DNA of 64,000 bases from Octopus vulgaris (Eukaryota), in NCBI GenBank assembly GCA_951406725.2, contig OX597823.1, positions 111,972,001 through 112,036,000 on the forward strand. Reading direction: 5' to 3'. How positions within the stretch are numbered: position 1 is the first letter of the stretch; every line of letters starts with the position of its first letter. The notes beneath the pieces were generated by a model. It had not been told where the DNA came from and ran no database searches. It saw nothing but the letters and a program-made list of their open reading frames with translations. The position numbers were made by a program, and so were the translations under genes. Below, piece by piece: positions 4,555 to 63,292 of this stretch.

Positions 4555-6250
4555 ATTTGTTTTTACCTTTAATTCCATCCTATTTTTGAATTTTGGGGCT
4601 GATCCCTGTTTGATTAATTCCCATGTCCGACATCGAGGGTCTCCACACTTGGTTACTTGTATGGTTTCTTTCTCTGGTGCCTTGGTTAGAAGTCTCTTAC
4701 TGTTTGGTGGTTGTCTTTGGCTGTTGATGATCTGTTGTTCCTTAAGTATTTGTTAGAGGACTGGTGTTGAATTGGTAGGAGGTGTTTGGCTGATTGTAGA
4801 ATGTTGTGGGTCTTGGGATTGTGGGTGGTAACAAATGGAATATTTTAATACGTATTTTCTTGCTTATTCTTGAAATAACCTTAGCTTTAATTCTCGCTTG
4901 GTCTATTAGTTTGGAGGGGTATTTTTGTTTTTTAAGGAACAAGCTAAGTTCTGCAAGTCATTTTCCTTGTGTATTTGTGTCCAAAACTAATGTGCATATT
5001 CATCTTTCCACATTAAAATGTATGTTTCCTTTTGTATGGGAAGGAAGGTAAGGTCTAAAGTCTAAATATTGGTGTGTGTCTGTGGTTTTATAATAGTGAA
5101 CAGTTGTAATAATTACTTTTTCTTTGATTTTTAAAATATCTAGGAAAGCGAGTTCCCTTTCATTTATTTCCATAATGAATTCTTCCTCCTCTCCATCATT
5201 TCCTCACCTGCTTAAATCTGACCCATGCTTGCATGGGTCAGATTAAGGCATATTACCTACAGATAATATGCCTTAATTTGTCACCAACCCTAACCTGCTT
5301 TCTAACAAGATAATACTTCCCCATGCCTGGATGTGTATTCATAGAAGATTGGAGAAAAAAGAACACCACTTGTATGACGATAGCACTCATTTACAATTGT
5401 CACATTATATCAAAACAAGGAGACACAAATTACATGTACATACATGCATGCACACACTTACACATGAGTGCTGTTTATTTGTTTGACAAATTTTCTAAGG
5501 TCCTCCTTACTTTTGTTCCAGAATATAAAACAGTCATCCAAGAATCTTTTCCAGTTTACCACTAAGTATGACAGGAGGTTTTCGCCAAATGGAATGTTAG
5601 ATAACAAACAGATTTTTTCTTCCAAATATCCCATTACCAGTGTTGCAAAAATGTCGGTGCTACTTTGGTTCCCATTGCAGCTCCAGATATTTGTTGGTAA
5701 TATTGTTTGTGAAAGAAGTAGTTATTTTCAAGTGCTAGGTGTCGTCCTTCAAGTACGAACTCCTTGGAGAATATCTCTTGAACTTTTTGTGGGTGTCTTT
5801 TTACGCAGAATTCTACTGCTTCTCGTTCTAATGTATGGTGGATATTAGTGTAGAGAATAACTACATCAAAAGCTGACTTAGTTTCTTTGTTTGCACTTTT
5901 TGGAATTTGGTTTAGGAAGTCCATATCATCTTTAATGAAACGTGGGACCAATTTATATAGGGTTTTAGAATCATGGCAAGCAAGTTGCTTAATGTTTGGG
6001 TGCTTGATACTGGTTCTGCTACAATGTGTCTTAATTTAAGATAAGATGGTCTTGGAAGCTTTATGTATGGTGTCTGGATGTCCGTCAAATTCTCAATTTA
6101 TTTAGACTTGTGGATTTTGGGAAGTCTCTAGAAGTTACTAGTTTTACTTCAAATTTATTAGGGTAATTTAACTCTTTTTTTGTAAACTCATTTCTATATG
6201 TGTTTGGAAGTTTACTAATCTTATGCAATGTATACCTTTCCAGATTATGT
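4555..6250 (-). mobile_element. Decayed Penelope-like retroelement (RT, thumb and start of GIY-YIG region), interrupted by a repeat at about 5215-5420
   Basis: Minus-strand peptides AFDVVILYTNI, YYQQISGAAMGTKVAPT, YKTTDTHQYLDF..HTK, FLKKQKYPSKLI and CGDPRC are PLE-type motifs; many frameshifts. Confidence 0.85.
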
Positions 6251-6397
6251 TCAAATTTTTGGGGGAGAAATGCTGGTCATTTAGATTTTACTCTTTAAAA
6301 AAGTTTTTCTTAATCTTAACTCTTTGAAAAAATCTATCTAAATATCATAAATGTATGAAGTAATTTCCTAAATACTCTGAATATATATATATCTATA

Positions 6398-6443
<46 letters not shown>

Positions 6444-6444
<1 letters not shown>

Positions 6445-6600
6445 GGAGAGAATTCCCGAAAGAACAAAAGACAAAGACAGGTGGTGTAGAAAACAAACAT
6501 ATGTATTAGTATAACGCTCAGAAATTGAAAAAAGTCTTTAATGTTTCGAGCCTATGCTTTTCACAGAAAGGAACACAGAAAGAAACAAGGAGAGAAAAAA
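6444..6600 (-). mobile_element. (TA)n-associated short element with degenerate hammerhead motif at 6536-6570
   Basis: Minus strand cttt ctgtgaa aagc atag gctc gaaa cat t aaag; same family as 8950-9110 and 36140-36318. Confidence 0.6.
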
Positions 6601-6634
6601 TTATTTAAAGGTGTGTGTGTGTGTGTATGGGTAT

Positions 6635-7070
6635 ATTCTTTTATTCTTTGACTTCAGTCATTTAAATGCAGCCATGGTGGAGCACCATTAAAGAGGATTC
6701 TTCATGTTTTGATCGAACAGGACTTGTTTTTCGTAAGTCTTGTACTTATTCTATCAGTTTATTTTGCTGAACTGCAAAGTTACAGCAATATAAATACACC
6801 TCCATCGGTTGTCAAGCAATGGTTGTGGGGGACAAACACAGACATACACACGTAAATAAACACACACACACACATGCACACATACAAACACACAAACATA
6901 TGTCTGTATATGTATATACATACAACAAGCTTCTTTCAGTTTTCATCTACCAAATCCACTTACAACACTTTTGGGGTCAGCGCAAGGCTATAGTAGAAAT
7001 TTGCTCATAGTGCCATGCAGTGGGACTGAATCCAAAATCGAGCAAGCTTTTTGTGCCACAGCTACACCTG
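6635..7070 (-). mobile_element. SINE family B, diverged
   Basis: Colinear with the cleaner copies at 17060-17459 and 49663-50070. Confidence 0.8.
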
Positions 7071-7416
7071 TGAGTATACACGTATATATATGTAATACTT
7101 GTAGTACTTACAACAATTAATAAAATGATGTAGTATGAAACGATCGTACCAAATTACCGGAGTCATTATTGTTGCTTATTTTGATTATAATCACCCCACG
7201 GATTTTTATAGATAACACCATACAAAATTCTGGTGCATCTAAATTAAGTACCATATTCATTTGAATCTAAAGTTTTGCTGAACATATATATATATATATA
7301 GTCATGCTGGAGCATATATATATATGTGTGTGTGAGTATTAATGCACACATATGTATATATATATGCTCCAGCATGACTGGAGCTGCATGGGTTAAACGA
7401 GTAAAAGAATAAAAGA

Positions 7417-7471
<55 letters not shown>

Positions 7472-8171
7472 TATCCACATATATACAATATATATATAAT
7501 ATTAATAGTGACTGTTTATTTTGAAGTTTTGCCATTAATACTGGTTTCTCAAAGTAGTTTTAATGTTGGAACTTCAAAGGAAACAGTCACCACTAAAATA
7601 TTATTTCGAATCTATGAACAGTATTTGAGTCCTTCATTCAGCGCATGTTTATGGTATCATTTACATAAAAACTATTAAAACAACCCAGTTTATAGATTAC
7701 AATAAGACAAGTTTATAAGCTATGTATATGAAGCTTGAATAATAGACTGTAATGAACCAAATTTTTTGAGGAGGGATAGAATAAATGAGGTTCGTAGAGT
7801 ACAGTAACCCAAGAGTGTAGGGTAGAATATGTTGGGTTTATGAAGAACAATAAGCTAAGATCATAAGATATTTAGAATAAGTAAAGGATACAATAAGAAA
7901 CGTTGGCAGTACACAATAAGCTAACCAAGTTTGTCCCCTGTCACTAACATTATTAATTTTGTCCACCTAGGTAAAAAAATGTGTGACAATTAAGAGGACC
8001 ACTGTTTATGCATAATTAATGGTACATCAGAATCTCCTTAAGAAATTTAATTATTTGGCTCAGTTTCATAAGTTTTGCATATCAATATATTTTTGTATGT
8101 ATATATATATATATATATACCGGAGTATACACATAAATGTGAAACAAGGTGGAAAAAAAAGTACTCAAAAA

Positions 8172-8209
8172 CTGTCCGACGAACGGGAACGTGAAACTCA
8201 GAGTAACAG
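8172..8209 (+). ncRNA. Minimal type-I hammerhead ribozyme, CCGACGA core
   Basis: ctgt|ccgacga|acg ggaa cgt|gaa|actc a gagt|a|acag: stems I-III pair, GUA cleavage triplet. Confidence 0.75.
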
Positions 8210-8244
8210 GTTTTGTTGAATTTTCTGCTGCTTTAAATAAAGTC

Positions 8245-8491
8245 TGGCACCCGTGCCGGTGGCACGTAATAAGCACCATCCGTCCATGGCCGTTTGCCAG
8301 CTCCGCCTGGCACTTGTGCGAGTGGCACTCACTACACTCATGGAGTGGTTGGCGTTAGGAAGGGCATCTAGCTGTAGAAACACTGCCAGATCAGACTGGG
8401 CCTGATGCAGCCTTCTGGCTTCACAGACCCCAGTTGAACCGTCCAACCCATGCTAGCATGGAAAGCAGACACTAAATGATGATGATGATGA
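8245..8491 (+). mobile_element. Family D SINE/LINE tail
   Basis: ggcgttaggaagggcatctagctgtagaaac...ccgtccaacccatgctagcatggaaagcagac then (gat)n. Confidence 0.8.
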
Positions 8492-8799
8492 TTATGGTGT
8501 TTACTTTAATCTCAAAACGCATATTTGATTAATCCTGATCGTGTTGATTCATTGTTTTTTGTCTTTGCCTTCATAAAAAGTATGTTTACCATCATGGAGA
8601 TTCTTATAGTAGTGGAAAAAGAATTTTTAACTCCTTTTTCTAATTTCAGTATGTGGTGAAGCAATTAGCTGAACCCTAATTGTAATTATGTGGATAATTT
8701 TACCTATAAAGGTTATTTTAATGTACCAATCTACTTGGTAAAATTGTTAATTAATTAATTAATTAATTAACAATTAATAAATTCTACCTTCTATTATTA

Positions 8800-8831
<32 letters not shown>

Positions 8832-8949
8832 ATGTATGTATCTATATATATGTATTTATATATACATATATATACATATATATATGTATTATATATATAT
8901 ATATACAAACACACAAGTATGTATAAATATATATACATATATATATGTA

Positions 8950-9110
8950 GGGAGAATTCACGTAAAAGCAAAAGATGAAGACAGGTGGTGTAGAAAACAA
9001 ACAGATGTATTAGTTTAACGCTCAGGAAGTTTAAAATTTTCTTTAATGTTTCAAGGCTACGCTCTTTCACAGAAAGGAACACAGAAAGAAACAAGGAGAG
9101 AAAATAAAGA
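8950..9110 (-). mobile_element. (TA)n-associated short element with degenerate hammerhead motif at 9041-9076
   Basis: Homologous to 6444-6600 and 36140-36318. Confidence 0.6.
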
Positions 9111-9167
9111 ATGTATAGTGGCTAGCAATCCAACATGGCGATGGATATATATATATATATATATAAT

Positions 9168-9530
9168 GTAGGATAAAATTTTTTCCAAAAAAAATTATAT
9201 CAATGCCCAGCATACTAAAAAATACCTTTAAAGGTTAAATTATAAACAACTTATAAATAAGGGCAAGCAAAAAAATTTCTAATGCCAAATATGCCGAAAA
9301 TTGGACATATTGTCCATTTACGAAGGGAGGGTTCTTTTGGAACTAACCCTGAAATCGGTCCGATATGGTAGTAATGGAATTTTTTAGAGATTTCTGTCGG
9401 CCTTTTTTTGAGTAGTGTGCGTACTGGGGAAAAAAATTATATGGTAAATTGGACAATATGTCCAATTTTTCGGCATATTTGGCATTAGAAATGTTTTCGT
9501 TTGCCCTTTATAAGTTGTATAAGTTGTATA
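9168..9530. mobile_element. Fold-back element in (TA)n with 5'-truncated hammerhead at about 9320-9362
   Basis: Inverted arms at about 9250-9320 and 9445-9520; acgaag..agggtt/aaccct gaaa tcggtc. Confidence 0.6.
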
Positions 9531-9695
<165 letters not shown>

Positions 9696-9715
9696 AGTAA
9701 GTATACACACATACT

Positions 9716-19926: not shown

Positions 19927-19999
19927 TGCCCAACGTGGGGCATGAACCCATGACCCTAAGATTAAGAGTGCCATGCTCTAGCGACTGAGCTAGCCAGGC
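19927..19999 (-). pseudogene. tRNA-Lys(CTT) pseudogene
   Basis: Minus strand gcctggctagctcagtcgctagagcatggcaCTCTTAAtcttagggtcatgggttcatgccccacgttgggca closely matches eukaryotic tRNA-Lys-CTT; anticodon-stem mismatch and altered T-loop/B box; T4 tract just downstream. Confidence 0.85.
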
Positions 20000-20016: not shown

Positions 20017-20448
20017 CAAACTAGCTTGTTAAGAAAATCTCAATTAGAGACAAAAGCAATATTTATACTAAGAAGTGATGTTTATTGCCACCTGAATGTG
20101 GGTGTTCTATAAGAACAAACAATACTGCTATTTTAACCCCAGGAGGATGCCTCCTGCAACTGGTTATGTTGTGCAGTTCACACACAATATATATTGCATG
20201 CAGGGAGAGAACTGCCTGCTATTCTAGCTCAGAGACCACGATATCAAGTGATTTTGATCTCATTTTGATCATCCTCAGTGATGGATACTTGTCTGCTAGA
20301 CATAGCAGTCATTTACCCCAGGTCGCTTTTTATAGAAAAACAATGTCATACAGTGACTGGTTTTGCAACTGGCAAACTAGCTCATTAAGAAAATCTCTAT
20401 TAGAGATGAAAGCTGTATTTGTACTTAGAAGTAATGTTTATCACCACC
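20017..20448 (-). mobile_element. Terminally redundant element (unit about 356 bp) with a hammerhead at 20236-20284
   Basis: Direct repeats of about 75 bp at 20017 and 20373; minus strand ccatca|ctgagga|t gatc..gatc|aaa(G12A)|atca ct tgat|a|tcgtgg. Confidence 0.65.
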
Positions 20449-20485: not shown

Positions 20486-21196
20486 TACAATTTAAAAATA
20501 GGATAAAATCTTCATAAGAATTTATCAAGTAGTTAGCATGAAAAACCTCATAAGAGAAAAAAATCCATCAATTTTTTCACTTAAATATATTTATTTATAT
20601 TATATAGAGGGCAATATTTTTGTAGTTTTGACTTTAAGAGTCCCTCCTAGCGTGTGGCATTTATGTGTAATAATGCCCTCTATATAATATAAATAAATAT
20701 ATTCAAGTGAAAAAATTGATGGATTTTTTTTTCTGTTATGAGGTTTTTCATGCTAACTACTTGATAAATTGTTATGAAGATTTTATCCTATTTTTGAATT
20801 GTAAATTTGACCGGAGTATATTCAATACTGAATTTTTATTCTGAATAAGCATGTTATTACTGAAATGTAATTCGAAAAAGCCCGCCATTTACATAGATGT
20901 ATAAGGGGTGAACATTTCTACATGCTGCATTGGATATGACAGTTGTTCACCTGGTATGTTGTTTTTGTTCATTCATTATAAATCTTGAATTATGCTTGCA
21001 CTGAGGAGTGAAAAGTACATACCACTGCACTGATTACGAAATCACAGTGTGATATGCAGCTGAATTCTGTTTTTAAATGACTTGCTTCTAGAGAGTTGGT
21101 TTTGGTACGATATGTTTATTTATTTTAGTAGTTTTGACTTTACGAGTCCCTCCTAGTGTGTGGTATTTATGTGCAATAATGTCCTCTATATAATAT
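20486..21196. mobile_element. Fold-back plus terminally redundant hammerhead element (unit about 506 bp) in (TA)n
   Basis: Inverted arms at about 20486-20613 and 20674-20804; direct repeats at 20622-20690 and 21128-21196. Confidence 0.8.
20997..21058 (+). ncRNA. Type-I hammerhead ribozyme, canonical CUGAGGA core
   Basis: tgca|ctgagga|gtga...ttac|gaa|atcac agt gtgat|a|tgca; AUA triplet, 5-bp stem III. Confidence 0.85.
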
Positions 21197-21840: not shown

Positions 21841-22211
21841 GAGGATGAGAGAGAGAGTGAGAGAGAGAGAGAATGAGGCAGAAACTTCCTGCAATGCTTC
21901 TCTCCCTTGCCAAGAATTAAGCAGAGCCAATGAAAATGCACTCATATTACATAAAAAAAAATTCTAGTCAAAAATATGAGATCCTAAGATTTTGAATAAA
22001 GGGATCATAAAATAGAATTCTTAGAAACTCAGTGATACATGAGTTAGCTATTGGTTTACATGGATACACAGACACACGCATACATGCACACACACACATG
22101 CATGCACATACGCACATACACATACACAGATTGCACAGTTGATGTCTTTTCTCATATCTCCTCAAATGCTATCTTTGAAATTATTATTTACTATAAAAAG
22201 AAACTGCTATC

Positions 22212-22553
22212 TGTTGTGTCTGGGGAGAGTCATTTTCTTTTTGTGCCTTATTATTTAACACACTCACCGGTAAAATTTCCACTTTTTTCTTATTTTTATT
22301 GTCCTAAAATTTTTTTTGCGTCTTGCAACTTTTTCAATAGTTTTGAATAGTTTTTCAATGGTCAAAACTATGGAAAAGGTTGCAAGATGCAACGAAAATT
22401 TTAGGACAATAAAAATAAGAAAAAAGTGGAAATTTTACCGGTGAGTGTGTTAAATAATAAGGCACAACAAGAAAATGACTCTCCCCAGACACAATAGAAT
22501 ATGCTTCAACACACGAACTCATATAAAGAATCTTGCAAACCAAATCCCAAAAT
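22212..22553. mobile_element. Fold-back hammerhead element with 12-bp TSD
   Basis: Arms at about 22210-22346 and 22362-22498; gaaactgctatc at 22200-22211 and 22554-22565; HHR motif at 22368-22404 (+). Confidence 0.85.
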
Positions 22554-22794
22554 GAAACTGCTATCATTTTCCTGCATGTGCAATACTGCAGCAAACTTAG
22601 AATACAAACACCTTATGCAGTAAGATTATATGTTTTATCTTAGATTTTTTTGAATTAAGACATAACCATACTCAGTTTAATAAACTTTTAAGACCAAACA
22701 TATTTCAGAGTTCACGATTCTAATAACAATTCTAAACAAGGACCATTTTCAATCTTACTCTGATAAGTACAAATCATAATCAAACCACAAGATG

Positions 22795-36139: not shown

Positions 36140-36315
36140 TCGGTAGCCACTACACACATTTTTTTCTCTGCTTGTTTTTTTCTGTGTCCCTTCCTGTAGA
36201 AGAGCGTAGGCTCGAAACGTAAAAGACTTTTTCAATTTCCTGAGCGTTATACTAATACATATGTTTGTTTTATACACCACTTCTCTTCGTCTTTTTCCTT
36301 TTTCGTGAACTCTCC

Positions 36316-36318
<3 letters not shown>
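36140..36318 (+). mobile_element. (TA)n-associated element with hammerhead-like motif at 36190-36225 (CUGUAGA core)
   Basis: ctgtaga a gagc gtag gctc gaaa cgt a aaag. Confidence 0.6.
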
Positions 36319-36352
<34 letters not shown>

Positions 36353-36355
<3 letters not shown>

Positions 36356-37229
36356 TCATTATATTAAGTTCTATTACTACATGTAAATGCCTCACACTTT
36401 TATGGGACTCTGAAGTCAAACTGCTTTAATAAATATACACGGTACCGAAAGCAAGGATATGCAACTTGGAAGCTACAGATTTAGTCTCAAATCATTAATG
36501 ATTTCATGGTTAGCGTACATAATACACTTTCCAATCATCAGTACAAACATAATCAGAACACATAAAAATGAACATCTCTACATACCAGGGAGTAGCAAGC
36601 GTATCCAACAAAGCATATACAAATGCTCACACTTATATATCCATCTAAAAGGTGGGCTTCTCAAATTACATCTAGGTATACGTGTATAGTCGGAACAATT
36701 CAGCACCGAATTTATTGGTTTAATTTCAAATAATATATAAGGTTAAAATCTATAAGAATTTATCAAGTAGCCAGCATAAAAACCCGGCTATACACGTGTA
36801 CCGAGATGTAATTTGAGAAGCCCGCCTTTTACATGGATATATAAGTGGGAGCATTTGTATATGCTATATTAGATACGTTTGCTGTTCCCTTGGTATGTAC
36901 AGATGTTCATATTTATGTGTTCTGATTATGTTTGCACTGATGATTGGAAAGTGTATTATGTACGCTAACCATGAAATCATTAATGATTTGAGACTAAATC
37001 TGTAGCTTCCAAGTTGAATACCTTTGCTTTCGGTAGCGTGTATATTTATTAAAGTAATTTGACTTCAGAGTCCCATAACAGCGTGAGGCATTTACGTGTA
37101 GTAATGACCCTTAATATAATGAATGTATTTATATTTAAAGGGGAAAATTATGTATTTTGTATTAATTTTTTCCTGAACTGGTTTTTCACGCTGGCTACTT
37201 GATAATTTCTTATATAGATTTTATCCTTA
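36353..37229. mobile_element. Large fold-back, circularly permuted hammerhead element related to 20486-21196
   Basis: Arms at about 36356-36692 and 36785-37123; 36738-36784 is also the inverse of 37180-37229; HHR at 36933-36992 (+) and about 36485-36545 (-). Confidence 0.8.
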
Positions 37230-37233
37230 TATA

Positions 37234-37312
<79 letters not shown>

Positions 37313-37487
37313 TAATAAATATTAGGGAATGAATCCAAAATTACAGGGAAAAAATCAGATTTAGGGTTAAATCCAATTTTATAGTAAAATATTATATAAT
37401 ATAATTCGAGACAAAACCACTATTTTAAAACCAAACAAGGAAAGACTTAATCAATACATAAAATTTTAATATAAATTAAATAAACCG

Positions 37488-37531
37488 CCACTACAAATGT
37501 TTCATGTCTGCTACCGACAATCTTCAGGTGG
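37488..37531 (-). ncRNA. Minimal type-I hammerhead ribozyme (left arm)
   Basis: Exact reverse complement of 37584-37627. Confidence 0.85.
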
Positions 37532-37583
37532 ATTTTCGATCTAATCAGTATCAAAATGTGATACTGATTAGAAGATCGAAAAT

Positions 37584-37627
37584 CCACCTGAAGATTGTCG
37601 GTAGCAGACATGAAACATTTGTAGTGG
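37584..37627 (+). ncRNA. Minimal type-I hammerhead ribozyme, canonical CUGAAGA core
   Basis: ccac|ctgaaga|t tgtc ggtagca gaca t|gaa|ac attt gt|a|gtgg; GUA triplet, predicted cut after 37623. Confidence 0.85.
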
Positions 37628-37711
37628 CGGTTTATTTAATTTATATTAAAATTTTATGTATTGATTAAGTCTTTCCTTGTTTGGTTTTAAAATAGTGGTT
37701 TTGTCTCGAAT

Positions 37712-37756
<45 letters not shown>

Positions 37757-38194
37757 CATACAGAGAGAGAGAGAGAATCGGCACGAAGAAGAACGAACAA
37801 GAAAAACAATAACGTGAGGACGTGGTATAGGTACTGTACTATAAGATGCTCAGGAAAGGAAGGAATGTATGTATATACTGTTATACAACGCTGGTCACAA
37901 TACGATGTACATTGCCTGAGCATTTGAGTCATGTCACTCTACTGGCTAGGCGAACAAGCCAGCATTGCCCCTGATCTGATGCACGTTCCGTGGCAGGGCT
38001 ACTCATTTAGAGATGAGAGGGCTGGAGTAACACGAAATGGAATATTTTGCTCGAGAGCTTAACGTGCTATTTGGTGCGGGAATCGAACCCACGATGAAGT
38101 AATCATGAGTGCAACACCCTAACAACTAGGCCACACACACACACACACACAGATAGATAGATATGCAATCTACCTATGAATAAATTGTAATAAG

Positions 38195-46898: not shown

Positions 46899-48942
46899 TT
46901 TTCCTTTATGTTATCACATTGTGTCTAGCTGTTTATATTAATTTTTAATAAACACATTAGCATTCTTGTTAAAATGCCCACTCGGTATAACAATATAGTT
47001 GTCAGACCAGTAAAGACACAACTCAGACCGTCTACTTCGTACTCTCTCTTTATACTGACCGACGTCACCTTATTTATAGCGACTATCACATACCACACGT
47101 CACATTGGAGGGTTGTACCATTATTACTATTATCCCAACAACATCTCCTCTTTCAAGTTTTTCTTTTTTTCTTAGGGAGTATCATTTTATTTTATTTTTT
47201 AATAGCAATACTTCTTATATCGCCCCACCTTCCGTTTTTTAGATTTTTTCTTAGTTGCATATTTAATATTTTTCCTTTTGGCATCCACTTCCAGGAACTC
47301 CGTACATTTTCTTTTTCTTACGCTTGTGCACCTAGGTTCAATCACCAGTAGTGGCGTGGGTACTTGAAAAGTATCATGTAATCATTCTATTCGTTCTTCC
47401 ATTCTTTTGGGTTCGCTCTCAACGAATCTTCTTTTCAGTTGGATCATGTGTCTTTTGTATATGCCTTTTCTACTTTTTACCAAATATAGCATTTTTCCTA
47501 TGCCTTTTGGTAATCACGCCATCTTCCCAACTCTGTTCTCCATTCTTATATGTCCTCACAAACACATTTACACTGATTTTCTTTCCCCTGCTCGACAGCA
47601 ATTTGTCAAAGACTGATTTTATTTTCCTCGCAAACATCAGCTCCGCTGGTGGCATACCTGCTGGTGTATTTGGATTTCGTGTCACAAGGTATACTCTTAG
47701 GAACTGTTGCAGAGCTACCTCATCCGAGACTTCCTTATTCGACTTTCATTGAGGTCTCTTGAACGCATCGACAAAACATTCTGCTTGTCCATTAGATCTG
47801 GGATAGTATGGCACTGTGGTTATATGTTCAGCAGCGAACGTTTTACAGAACTTCTTAGATTCAAAAGGCTGAAATTGCGTTCCATTGTCAGACACTATCG
47901 CGTCTAGGATGCCAAATCTCGCAAAAGAACTCATGTAAAAAAATTTGTCACAGTTGAGGAGTTTGGTTTTTTACACTTACAAATTCCTGGCCATTAAAAG
48001 AAACTAGCAGCTGCCACTAAGTAGTATGAACCGTTTAAGGGACCAAGGAGGCCCTGACATTATGTATATTGGGAATGAAAATTTGATTATAATTTACTAA
48101 ACCCAAGCATGCTTGTAGCATAGTCACATTATTCGGCGTGGGCATATTATTTTATCACAGTTGTTCCGGATGGATCCGGTTTACATCCGTTTTTATCTGT
48201 TATCTGGCCCACGTATTTAATATTTTTCATTAAGAATTCGCATTTTTCTTCCATTAACTTGAAACCATATTCTCTCATCTTCTCAAATGCCCTTTTAACA
48301 TGTTCTACATTTTGTTCATGTAATTCGCTTTTTATTGGAATATCATTTAAATAGGTGACAGCAAAATTACAGTCGCCTGGCTTTGTATCTATTACTTGCT
48401 GAAATATGGAAGGCACACATTTTACCGAAGAGAAGCCACTTAAATTTAAATACGCTACGTTGTGTATCGGTGGTTGATAAATGTGAGCATTCTTCTACTT
48501 GGATTTGTAGATACGCCTCCGAGAGGTCTAATTTTGAGAAGAATTTCTCTCCATTCAATTTTGAAAACACTTCCTCAGGACTTGGCAGTGCGTAGTTATG
48601 TGGGGTTAAGCAATCATTCGAATCTGTTGAAAAATCTGCACAAACTCTTAATTTGTTGCTTTTCTTTTTTTAAATAAACCATAGCTGCTACCCAGTCTTA
48701 GCGGTCTCTTCTCGGTTATTCCTAGGTTGTAAAGTCTTTCAAATTCTTTATTTACCTGGTCTATTGCCGCGGATGGTACATTCCATTTTGGCTGAAATAC
48801 AGATGTTGCACTTTGTTTTACTGCAATTTTTACCGTTGTCTTCATGCCACAGCCCAGTTCCTCCGAGAAAACATCTGGAAATAAATGCTTTGCTTTTCGT
48901 TTCAGTCCCTCGGCTGCATTCGAACTTTTCACTGAACCACAC

Positions 48943-55547: not shown

Positions 55548-55748
55548 TTTTTTCGTTTTTGGATTTGGTTTGCAAGATTCTTTATATGAGTTCGTGTGTT
55601 GAAGCATATTCTGTTGTGTCTGGGGAGAGTCATTTTCTTTTTGTGCCTCATGATTTAACACACACACTGGTAAAATTTCCACTTATTTCTTATTTTTATT
55701 CTCCTAAAATTTTCGTTGCGTCTTGCAACCTTTTCAATAGTCTTGACT
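55548..55748 (-). mobile_element. Single-arm copy of the 22.2-22.5 kb family with hammerhead at 55704-55740 (UUGAAAA core)
   Basis: cta|ttgaaaa|g gttgc aagac gcaac|gaa|aatt|t|tag. Confidence 0.75.
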
Positions 55749-58718: not shown

Positions 58719-59083
58719 AACAATTGCAGCGTGGAAGGTGTTTATAAGCCATTTAAGAAACACACAAAAACTGTTAGATTCACTTCAACATTTAAATTTA
58801 ATTTGTCAAAATATTCTCGTCGCTTTGAGACCGCGACCTGTTCACAGACAAAATTCCATGCTGCATCTCGGAATTTTGAGATGCAGCACAGAATTTTGTC
58901 TGTGAACAGGTCGCGGTCTCAAAGCGACGAGAATATTTTGACAAATTAAATTTAAATGTTGAAGTGAATCTAACAGTTTTTGTGTGTTTCTTAAATGGCT
59001 TATAAACACCTTCCACGCTGCAATTGTTTTCGTTCCTGAACACGATCTCAGATCAGGTCACTTGCTATGCAAGTGCATCTCCG

Positions 59084-62953: not shown

Positions 62954-63268
62954 ATATATATATATATATATGTATGCATGTATGATTGTATGCATGTATG
63001 TATTCATGTACGTATATAATGACATATTCATACACACATGCGTGTACATATGTGTGATGAAGGCAATGATATGCATTATGATGCTGCTGCTGTTGTTGTT
63101 GATGCATCATCATCATCATCATCATCACCACCAGCAGCAGCAGCAACAACAACAGCAGCAGCATCATAATGCATATCATTGCCTTCATCACACATATGTA
63201 CACGCATGTGTGTATGAATATGTCATTATATACGTACATGAATACATACATGCATACAATCATACATG

Positions 63269-63292
<24 letters not shown>
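62954..63292. repeat. Perfect inverted duplication with arms of about 148 bp and a trinucleotide-repeat spacer
   Basis: About 62954-63101 is the reverse complement of 63144-63292. Confidence 0.9.

Follow-up and report, generated by a model that had tools for sequence, protein, structure and literature searches.

Metazoan non-LTR retrozymes are non-coding, low-GC, periodic units that carry one type I hammerhead and close head to tail, and they have been proposed to depend on Penelope-like elements (PLEs) (PMC7229834; bioRxiv 10.64898/2026.07.22.740005). PLEs were named as candidate mobilisers of animal retrozymes in PMC7229834, and the link is backed by distribution and tree evidence in bioRxiv 10.64898/2026.07.22.740005, where descent of retrozymes from PLEs is also argued. 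EN+ PLEs insert as head-to-head inverted, 5′-truncated copies with a tail on one end in (TA)n targets (PMC3846280, PMC8557442, PMC11167929). Their footprint includes a head-to-head inverted copy, a one-end tail of 30-40 nt and a (TA)n bias, and in publications PLE insertions are normally permuted, inverted copies that bear a tail (PMC3846280, PMC8557442, PMC8969392). A type I hammerhead lies upstream of two end sites in these elements, and its cut site is read through (PMC11167929, PMC4209133). Hammerhead pairs on opposite strands, 100-700 bp apart, were noted for PLEs in 2014, in the paper that also published a circle model for them (PMC4209133). A PLE protein of a lizard, when assayed in vitro, cuts AT-rich DNA and extends the two strands of the target; its two start sites are internal and delimit the tail, uncleaved RNA is its main substrate, and hammerhead cleavage is not needed (PMC11167929). 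Non-autonomous Chlamys elements of green algae, e.g., MRC1, derive from PLEs and have pLTRs, copies arranged head to tail and targets in microsatellites; as described in PMC8557442, they mostly lack canonical hammerheads and resemble the 3′ ends of their partners.

A protein-free unit of Octopus vulgaris seems, judged by its sequence, to work like a PLE-mobilised non-LTR retrozyme. It was followed in one window, that is, the whole analysed stretch of 64,000 nt from contig OX597823.1. The best-resolved insertion, element A, has the following layout, in which X, Y, Z and g are segments of the unit and P1 and P2 are two 3′ end zones.

36356-37228, element A, two arms joined at their 5′ ends and placed between two (TA)n tracts
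36318..36351, (TA)n, left part of the inferred target
37228..37306, (TA)n, right part of the inferred target
36356..36787, minus strand, left arm: X, spacer, Y, hammerhead and Z, with its 3′ end at P1, ~134 nt past the predicted cut
36784..37228, plus strand, right arm: Y, hammerhead, Z, g and X, with its 3′ end at P2, ~240 nt past the predicted cut
36784..36787, head-to-head junction, a 4-nt palindrome (CCGG)
36738..36785, minus strand, left copy of X, from the previous period, with 43/48 letters the same as in the right X
36690..36737, minus strand, spacer from X to Y that closes the unit
At 36788 (plus strand, right arm) and 36689 (minus strand, left arm), Y
At 37180, plus strand, right copy of X
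37123..37228, plus strand, g and X, ~106 nt, which lie from P1 to P2 and form the one-sided 'tail'
36478..36554, minus strand, type I hammerhead, left copy: core from 36541, predicted cut after 36490
36924..37000, plus strand, type I hammerhead, right copy: core 36937, predicted cut after 36988
36789..37044, plus strand, predicted RNA domain: a helix of 36789-36821 with 37005-37044 around a hairpin (about 36835-36922) and the hammerhead

The preliminary description of this locus had read the two arms as circularly permuted and had put the unit at about 490 nt. The landmarks lie where it placed them, with X at the end of the right arm and at the beginning of the left one, and the measured period is 488 nt. 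The two arms are identical at 308 of 336 aligned letters (91.7%) in their shared part, and the alignment of the two X copies scores 67, the maximum among 5000 shuffles being 35. As in the metazoan retrozymes, whose GC content lies below 45-50%, GC content is low (0.33 and 0.31, i.e., 31-33%). The longest stop-free stretch in 12 frames is 66 codons, and the unit has no ORF; an autonomous EN+ PLE has one with reverse transcriptase (RT) and GIY-YIG endonuclease.

Other copies were surveyed in the assembled contigs of four of 24 public runs. A 384-nt contig in runs X1, X2 and X5 covers 36558-36941, including the central junction, with 1-2 differences; such a junction-spanning contig occurs in at least three of the four runs among the best 32 pieces listed. 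Since the inverted junction lies on single contigs, it is a genomic structure rather than an assembly fold-back. The palindrome at the junction is likely to reflect microhomology of 2-4 nt. Both arms also carry letters that are absent from most other copies (36817, 36991), as expected if they derive from one template lineage. Summed contig depth over X is 22,000-98,000 in runs X1, X2 and X4 and 5,500-9,700 in X5, against mostly tens to ~1,400 over the body of the unit, and the X-bearing contigs mostly have the letters of element B, described below. This excess is compatible with many short copies ending at P2, but depth is not equal to copy number and the excess is not counted as evidence here. 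A pattern scan for the X motif gave no matches in metagenome and viral contigs, and one for a Z motif gave 118 loci, at none of which the profile match was convincing (best E 0.1).

The same window holds related elements.

20486..21195, element B, a 67% relative flanked by (TA)n
20615-21195, plus strand, longer arm of B: 1.15 periods with a period of 506, hammerhead core at 21001, ends at P1
About 20612 to 20486, minus strand, shorter arm of B, ends at P2
9165..9525, element E, flanked by (TA)n and belonging to a third family that shares the hammerhead layout
From 9322, plus strand, arm of E that starts inside the core and ends at P1
9321 to 9165, minus strand, arm of E with a 78-nt tail ending in the terminal 10-mer of X
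37307-37722, element D, two head-to-head arms of 150 nt that are 100% complementary

Element B is 67% identical to the left arm of A across 468 columns that take in X, spacer, Y, hammerhead and Z, and the spacer alone is homologous between the two (p=0.0002). On one strand of B the order is Z-g-X-spacer-Y-hammerhead-Z, with the same closure of X, spacer and Y as in A, which indicates an inherited property of the template and not something made at insertion. Template jumping at each insertion was rejected as the source of the permutation, because A and B have the closure in common. Among the best 15 of 45 joints in the public contigs, X is joined to the spacer at 37228/36706 and 37215/36716, and to Y from 37210 to 36784 and from 37232 to 36794; any one of these joints is present in 2-3 of the 4 runs. 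The proposal of a circular or tandem template with one hammerhead per unit is supported by the 1.15 head-to-tail units of B, the shared closure and the X joints of other copies; a circle in particular is not required. Two hammerheads in tandem were found at none of A, B and E in the 64-kb window, each arm having one. Just left of B lies a 76-nt direct repeat (84%; 20093-20168 and 20373-20448). A tRNA-like Rfam match (33 bits) at 19927-19999 on the minus strand, which ARAGORN does not call, is presumably the head of a tRNA-derived SINE.

In the predicted ribozyme of the unit, stem I is drawn as 4+2+4 pairs around an intact core, stem II as 4 and then 6 pairs separated by a 2x2 loop, and stem III as 4-5 pairs that are palindromic in A (36976-36987, right arm). 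Rfam reports no hammerhead at the gathering score over the whole window, and none at E<=10 over 36200-37800. Nevertheless, the core is intact in both arms of A and in B. Between A and B, 93% of cells pair, compared with 31-41% in slid controls, and five of 25 pairs are changed on both sides; with three sequences, two of them near-identical, and a structure drawn from the same sequences, this count alone is not strong. RNAalifold finds the stems unprompted. A motif model, from whose training E was kept out, finds a fourth, unrelated copy in E at 9296-9387 (34 bits, E about 2e-6), where the stems pair 4/4, 6/6 and 5/5 (15/15). The unprompted recovery and the match in E are two independent checks that agree with the fold, and both arms of A are predicted to carry an extended type I hammerhead. 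In A the base of stem II holds a U-U mismatch, which is also reported for an axolotl retrozyme (bioRxiv 10.64898/2026.07.22.740005; PMC7229834), and stem I has a mismatch not shared by most other copies; the core is hidden in the minimum-energy fold. Given these three features, self-cleavage of the A copy may be impaired.

The helix that encloses the hammerhead and the hairpin in Y are also conserved, with five of 64 pairs changed on both sides. The z score for the fold of the whole domain is -5.2 in the sense of A, -2.4 in B and -2.3 on the opposite strand of A. Y and X had also been considered as carrying a TATA box, a splice donor and a putative acceptor; the TATA-like and the donor-like motif both sit in the conserved hairpin, and this accounts for their conservation.

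The preliminary description missed that the 3′ ends of the arms are fixed at two zones. Measured from the predicted cut, arms end in P1 at +134 (A), +141 (B) and +156 (E), and in P2 at +240 (A), +255 (B) and +234 (E); the zones rest on these three elements, and each end is uncertain by 10-15 nt because it merges with (TA)n. Every end of A, B, D and E adjoins (TA)n, where a target-site duplication, which in non-LTR retrozymes is longer than 4 bp when present, would lie. The 5′ ends of the arms vary, unlike the 3′ ends. Fixed linear termini had been offered beforehand as an observation that would speak against a circular or tandem template. The 3′ ends in A, B and E are indeed fixed, but at two sites, and this fits internal priming on either template.

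Inverted, 5′-truncated copies in head-to-head arrangement occur at A, B, E and D, and a one-sided tail is present in all three of A, B and E (about 106, 114 and 78 nt). The 10-mer ATTTTATCCT at the end of X occurs four times in the window against 0.41 expected, always in X or in the tail of E. It is the firm link of the E tail, which overall aligns weakly with A and B (p 0.018 and 0.17). Element D, which shares the (TA)n tract at which A ends, has one minimal type I hammerhead in each arm, with cores at 37588 (plus strand) and 37527 (minus strand), and an extension of ~86 nt on one side that is possibly host DNA; this tail gave no alignment with A and B (p 0.33-0.36). Six of the eight arms of A, B, D and E cross the predicted cut site and none of the eight starts or ends there, so that a cleaved linear monomer is excluded as the template of those six. 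The starts of D and E lie 56 and 44 nt ahead of the cut, and those of A and B are distant from it. Arm lengths are 431/445 in A, 581/128 in B, 200/156 in E and 155/241 in D; equal lengths, as in a rule of 'one turn minus 50 nt', hold for A and not for B, E or D, and such a rule was rejected. A very abundant repeat, with a summed depth in millions, a hammerhead-like core by eye and a (TA)n end, lies at 36160-36316, 6406-6600 and 8918-9130. Both A and E sit in a tract adjoining a copy of it, and three such elements cluster at 36.1-37.7 kb.

The reading preferred here, with a probability of about 0.5, is that element A consists of two head-to-head copies of a protein-free hammerhead unit of ~490 nt, inserted into (TA)n by a PLE enzyme from an uncut tandem transcript. 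A source locus longer than one period would be transcribed, and a PLE RT-endonuclease, acting in trans, would bind downstream of the hammerhead, with X as a candidate signal, and nick both (TA)n strands. One target strand would prime at P1 and the other at P2, ~100 nt further on, in AT-rich RNA. The two cDNAs would then extend back across a ribozyme site that is intact, with the left cDNA continuing into the previous period, and the ends of both would be joined by short microhomology at 36784-36787. Internal starts and variable stops on a periodic template would account for the permutation of A. Against this reading, the tails of 78-114 nt are longer than the published 30-40 nt, no locus with two tandem hammerheads lies in the window, and the start site of the lizard enzyme in vitro is not homologous to its target (PMC11167929), whereas P1 and P2 are AT-rich like the target here.

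Also against it, the window holds no detectable autonomous PLE partner with a shared terminal sequence, of the kind that the Chlamys-type non-autonomous elements resemble in their 3′ ends (PMC8557442). A broken RT reading frame at 5400-6250 on the minus strand shares no detected sequence with the unit; its nearest match is a 672-aa Mytilus edulis protein with an RT domain (51% over 76% of the query). From its motifs, we take this remnant to be PLE-type. A second reverse transcriptase is present in fragments at 48147-48669 on the minus strand (Pfam RVT_1, E 7e-9) and is likely to be an LTR-retrotransposon remnant. The window also has a repeat-derived reading frame with an 84% match to an Octopus bimaculoides prediction over half its length.

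The main competitor, which is tentatively held and somewhat less probable, differs in the template: a re-ligated monomer ring of ~490-506 nt, like the circular RNA of non-LTR retrozymes, would be primed by the PLE enzyme at P1 and P2 and copied for up to one turn and more. An uncut tandem transcript explains everything, and for this reason a circle is not needed; the odds are placed with the tandem RNA over the circle, a choice that sequence alone cannot decide. The read-through of the cut site fits a ring equally well. Three families retain the fold of the ribozyme, so that cleavage seems to be important, and still none of the arms stops at the cut site. Moreover, the conserved helix of ~30 bp pairs both sides of the cut and would hold the ends of a monomer together. 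Rings are abundant for the retrozymes of mussels, which are 350-390 nt long (PMC7229834). A hammerhead with a compensated stem III of 4-5 bp might also cut fast and leave little uncut tandem RNA.

Against the ring, neither a ring nor a back-junction was observed in the assembled contigs, a material that does not show rings. A PLE in vitro did not depend on hammerhead cleavage, and none of its RNA-seq ends fell at the cut (PMC11167929), and of the Xenopus retrozyme dimers in bioRxiv 10.64898/2026.07.22.740005 one in nine was cleaved in vitro. Published rings are described as highly self-paired, whereas the full period of B closed into a circle is no more stable than its shuffles (z -0.86, 40 shuffles). 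The ring folds are mixed overall, with z -3.6 for the right arm of A and -1.95 for the left arm, each arm being closed without the segment that it lacks. The tandem copies within B differ at 6/75 sites and its inverted arms at 4/126 (Fisher p=0.18), and polarised changes stand at 4:1 for B and at 15:6 for A (p=0.08); the difference in B leans weakly, and not significantly, to non-identical tandem units. In A, the X copies (5/48) and the arms (28/336) differ about equally, and X copies no more diverged than the arms are what a circle predicts. A bolder form of the ring, which we consider less likely than not, would have octopus retrozyme rings of ~500 nt with an undescribed extended hammerhead copied by a dimeric PLE enzyme from two fixed sites ~100 nt apart, one for each target strand, under the guidance of a conserved signal that ends in ATTTTATCCT.

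It is improbable that a single cDNA started from P2 on a periodic template, folded back at the palindrome and copied itself, with an endonuclease then trimming one arm to P1. The junction of A is palindromic, the centre of D is a near-perfect hairpin, and the private letters common to both arms of A would follow directly; self-priming with endonuclease resolution has also been proposed for the inverted repeats and tails of PLEs (PMC3846280, PMC8557442). However, an extra and precise trimming step is required, a tandem or circular template is still needed, the polarised differences between the arms of A are uneven (15:6, p=0.08), and later in vitro work attributes the tail to two start sites (PMC11167929). 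A product formed at the DNA level, either a fold-back/MITE-type DNA transposon or a tandem dimer inverted after insertion, is largely refuted and very improbable: the inverted arms of 350 nt, the TA target and the presence in the window of other fold-back palindromes without a hammerhead core would suit it, but the ends are asymmetric by a tail of 78-114 nt and lack symmetric terminal inverted repeats, the RNA structure is biased to one strand (z -5.2 in sense and -2.3 in antisense) and shows compensatory changes, the arms of three families stop in one and the same pair of zones although their junctions are unrelated, and B is partly head to tail. The palindromes in question (89-97%) lie at 58719-59028, 22210-22498 and 62972-63273, and 22210-22557 has a single-orientation relative at 55551-55747.

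Set beside the published systems, the unit, which would be PLE-inserted from tandem RNA, differs in several respects. At 488-506 nt it is longer than the retrozymes of 170-400 nt in PMC7229834 and falls inside the range of 51-972 nt in bioRxiv 10.64898/2026.07.22.740005. In contrast to retrozymes, the octopus copies are head to head with a tail, and the 64-kb window contains no array with two intact hammerheads. In contrast to EN+ PLEs, the unit has no RT-endonuclease ORF and closes on itself after about 500 nt. Its tails measure 78-114 nt against 30-40 nt (PMC3846280, PMC8557442), and its hammerhead, with a two-part stem II (4+6 bp) and a stem III of 4-5 bp, differs from the PLE hammerhead, which is a minimal form (PMC4209133). 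It is not filed as an active retrozyme, because tandem hammerheads are absent from the window and cleavage and rings are putative, nor as an autonomous PLE, because it has no ORF. Its departures from published systems are therefore the long tails, the two-part stem II hammerhead in three families, the shared terminal 10-mer, and the marks of PLE insertion on a self-closing non-coding unit. A literature search that covered few subscription journals found no paper on the combination of a retrozyme with inverted head-to-head copies, and nothing on octopus hammerhead repeats.

The unit bears on two questions about animal retrozymes, namely by which enzyme they are spread and whether their template is the ring. 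A retrozyme-like, non-coding unit with marks said to be unique to PLEs (tail, head-to-head arrangement and TA target) would be mechanistic evidence on the first of them. With its two fixed start zones it would offer a non-coding substrate of 500 nt on which ring and uncut tandem RNA could be compared in vitro. The range known so far is extended by the length of the tails and by the variant hammerhead; permutation as such is expected for the class. If the reading with octopus rings were true, the insertions would link animal retrozymes with the PLE mechanism by a direct footprint in the genome, and the unit would be a non-coding minimal substrate for that mechanism.
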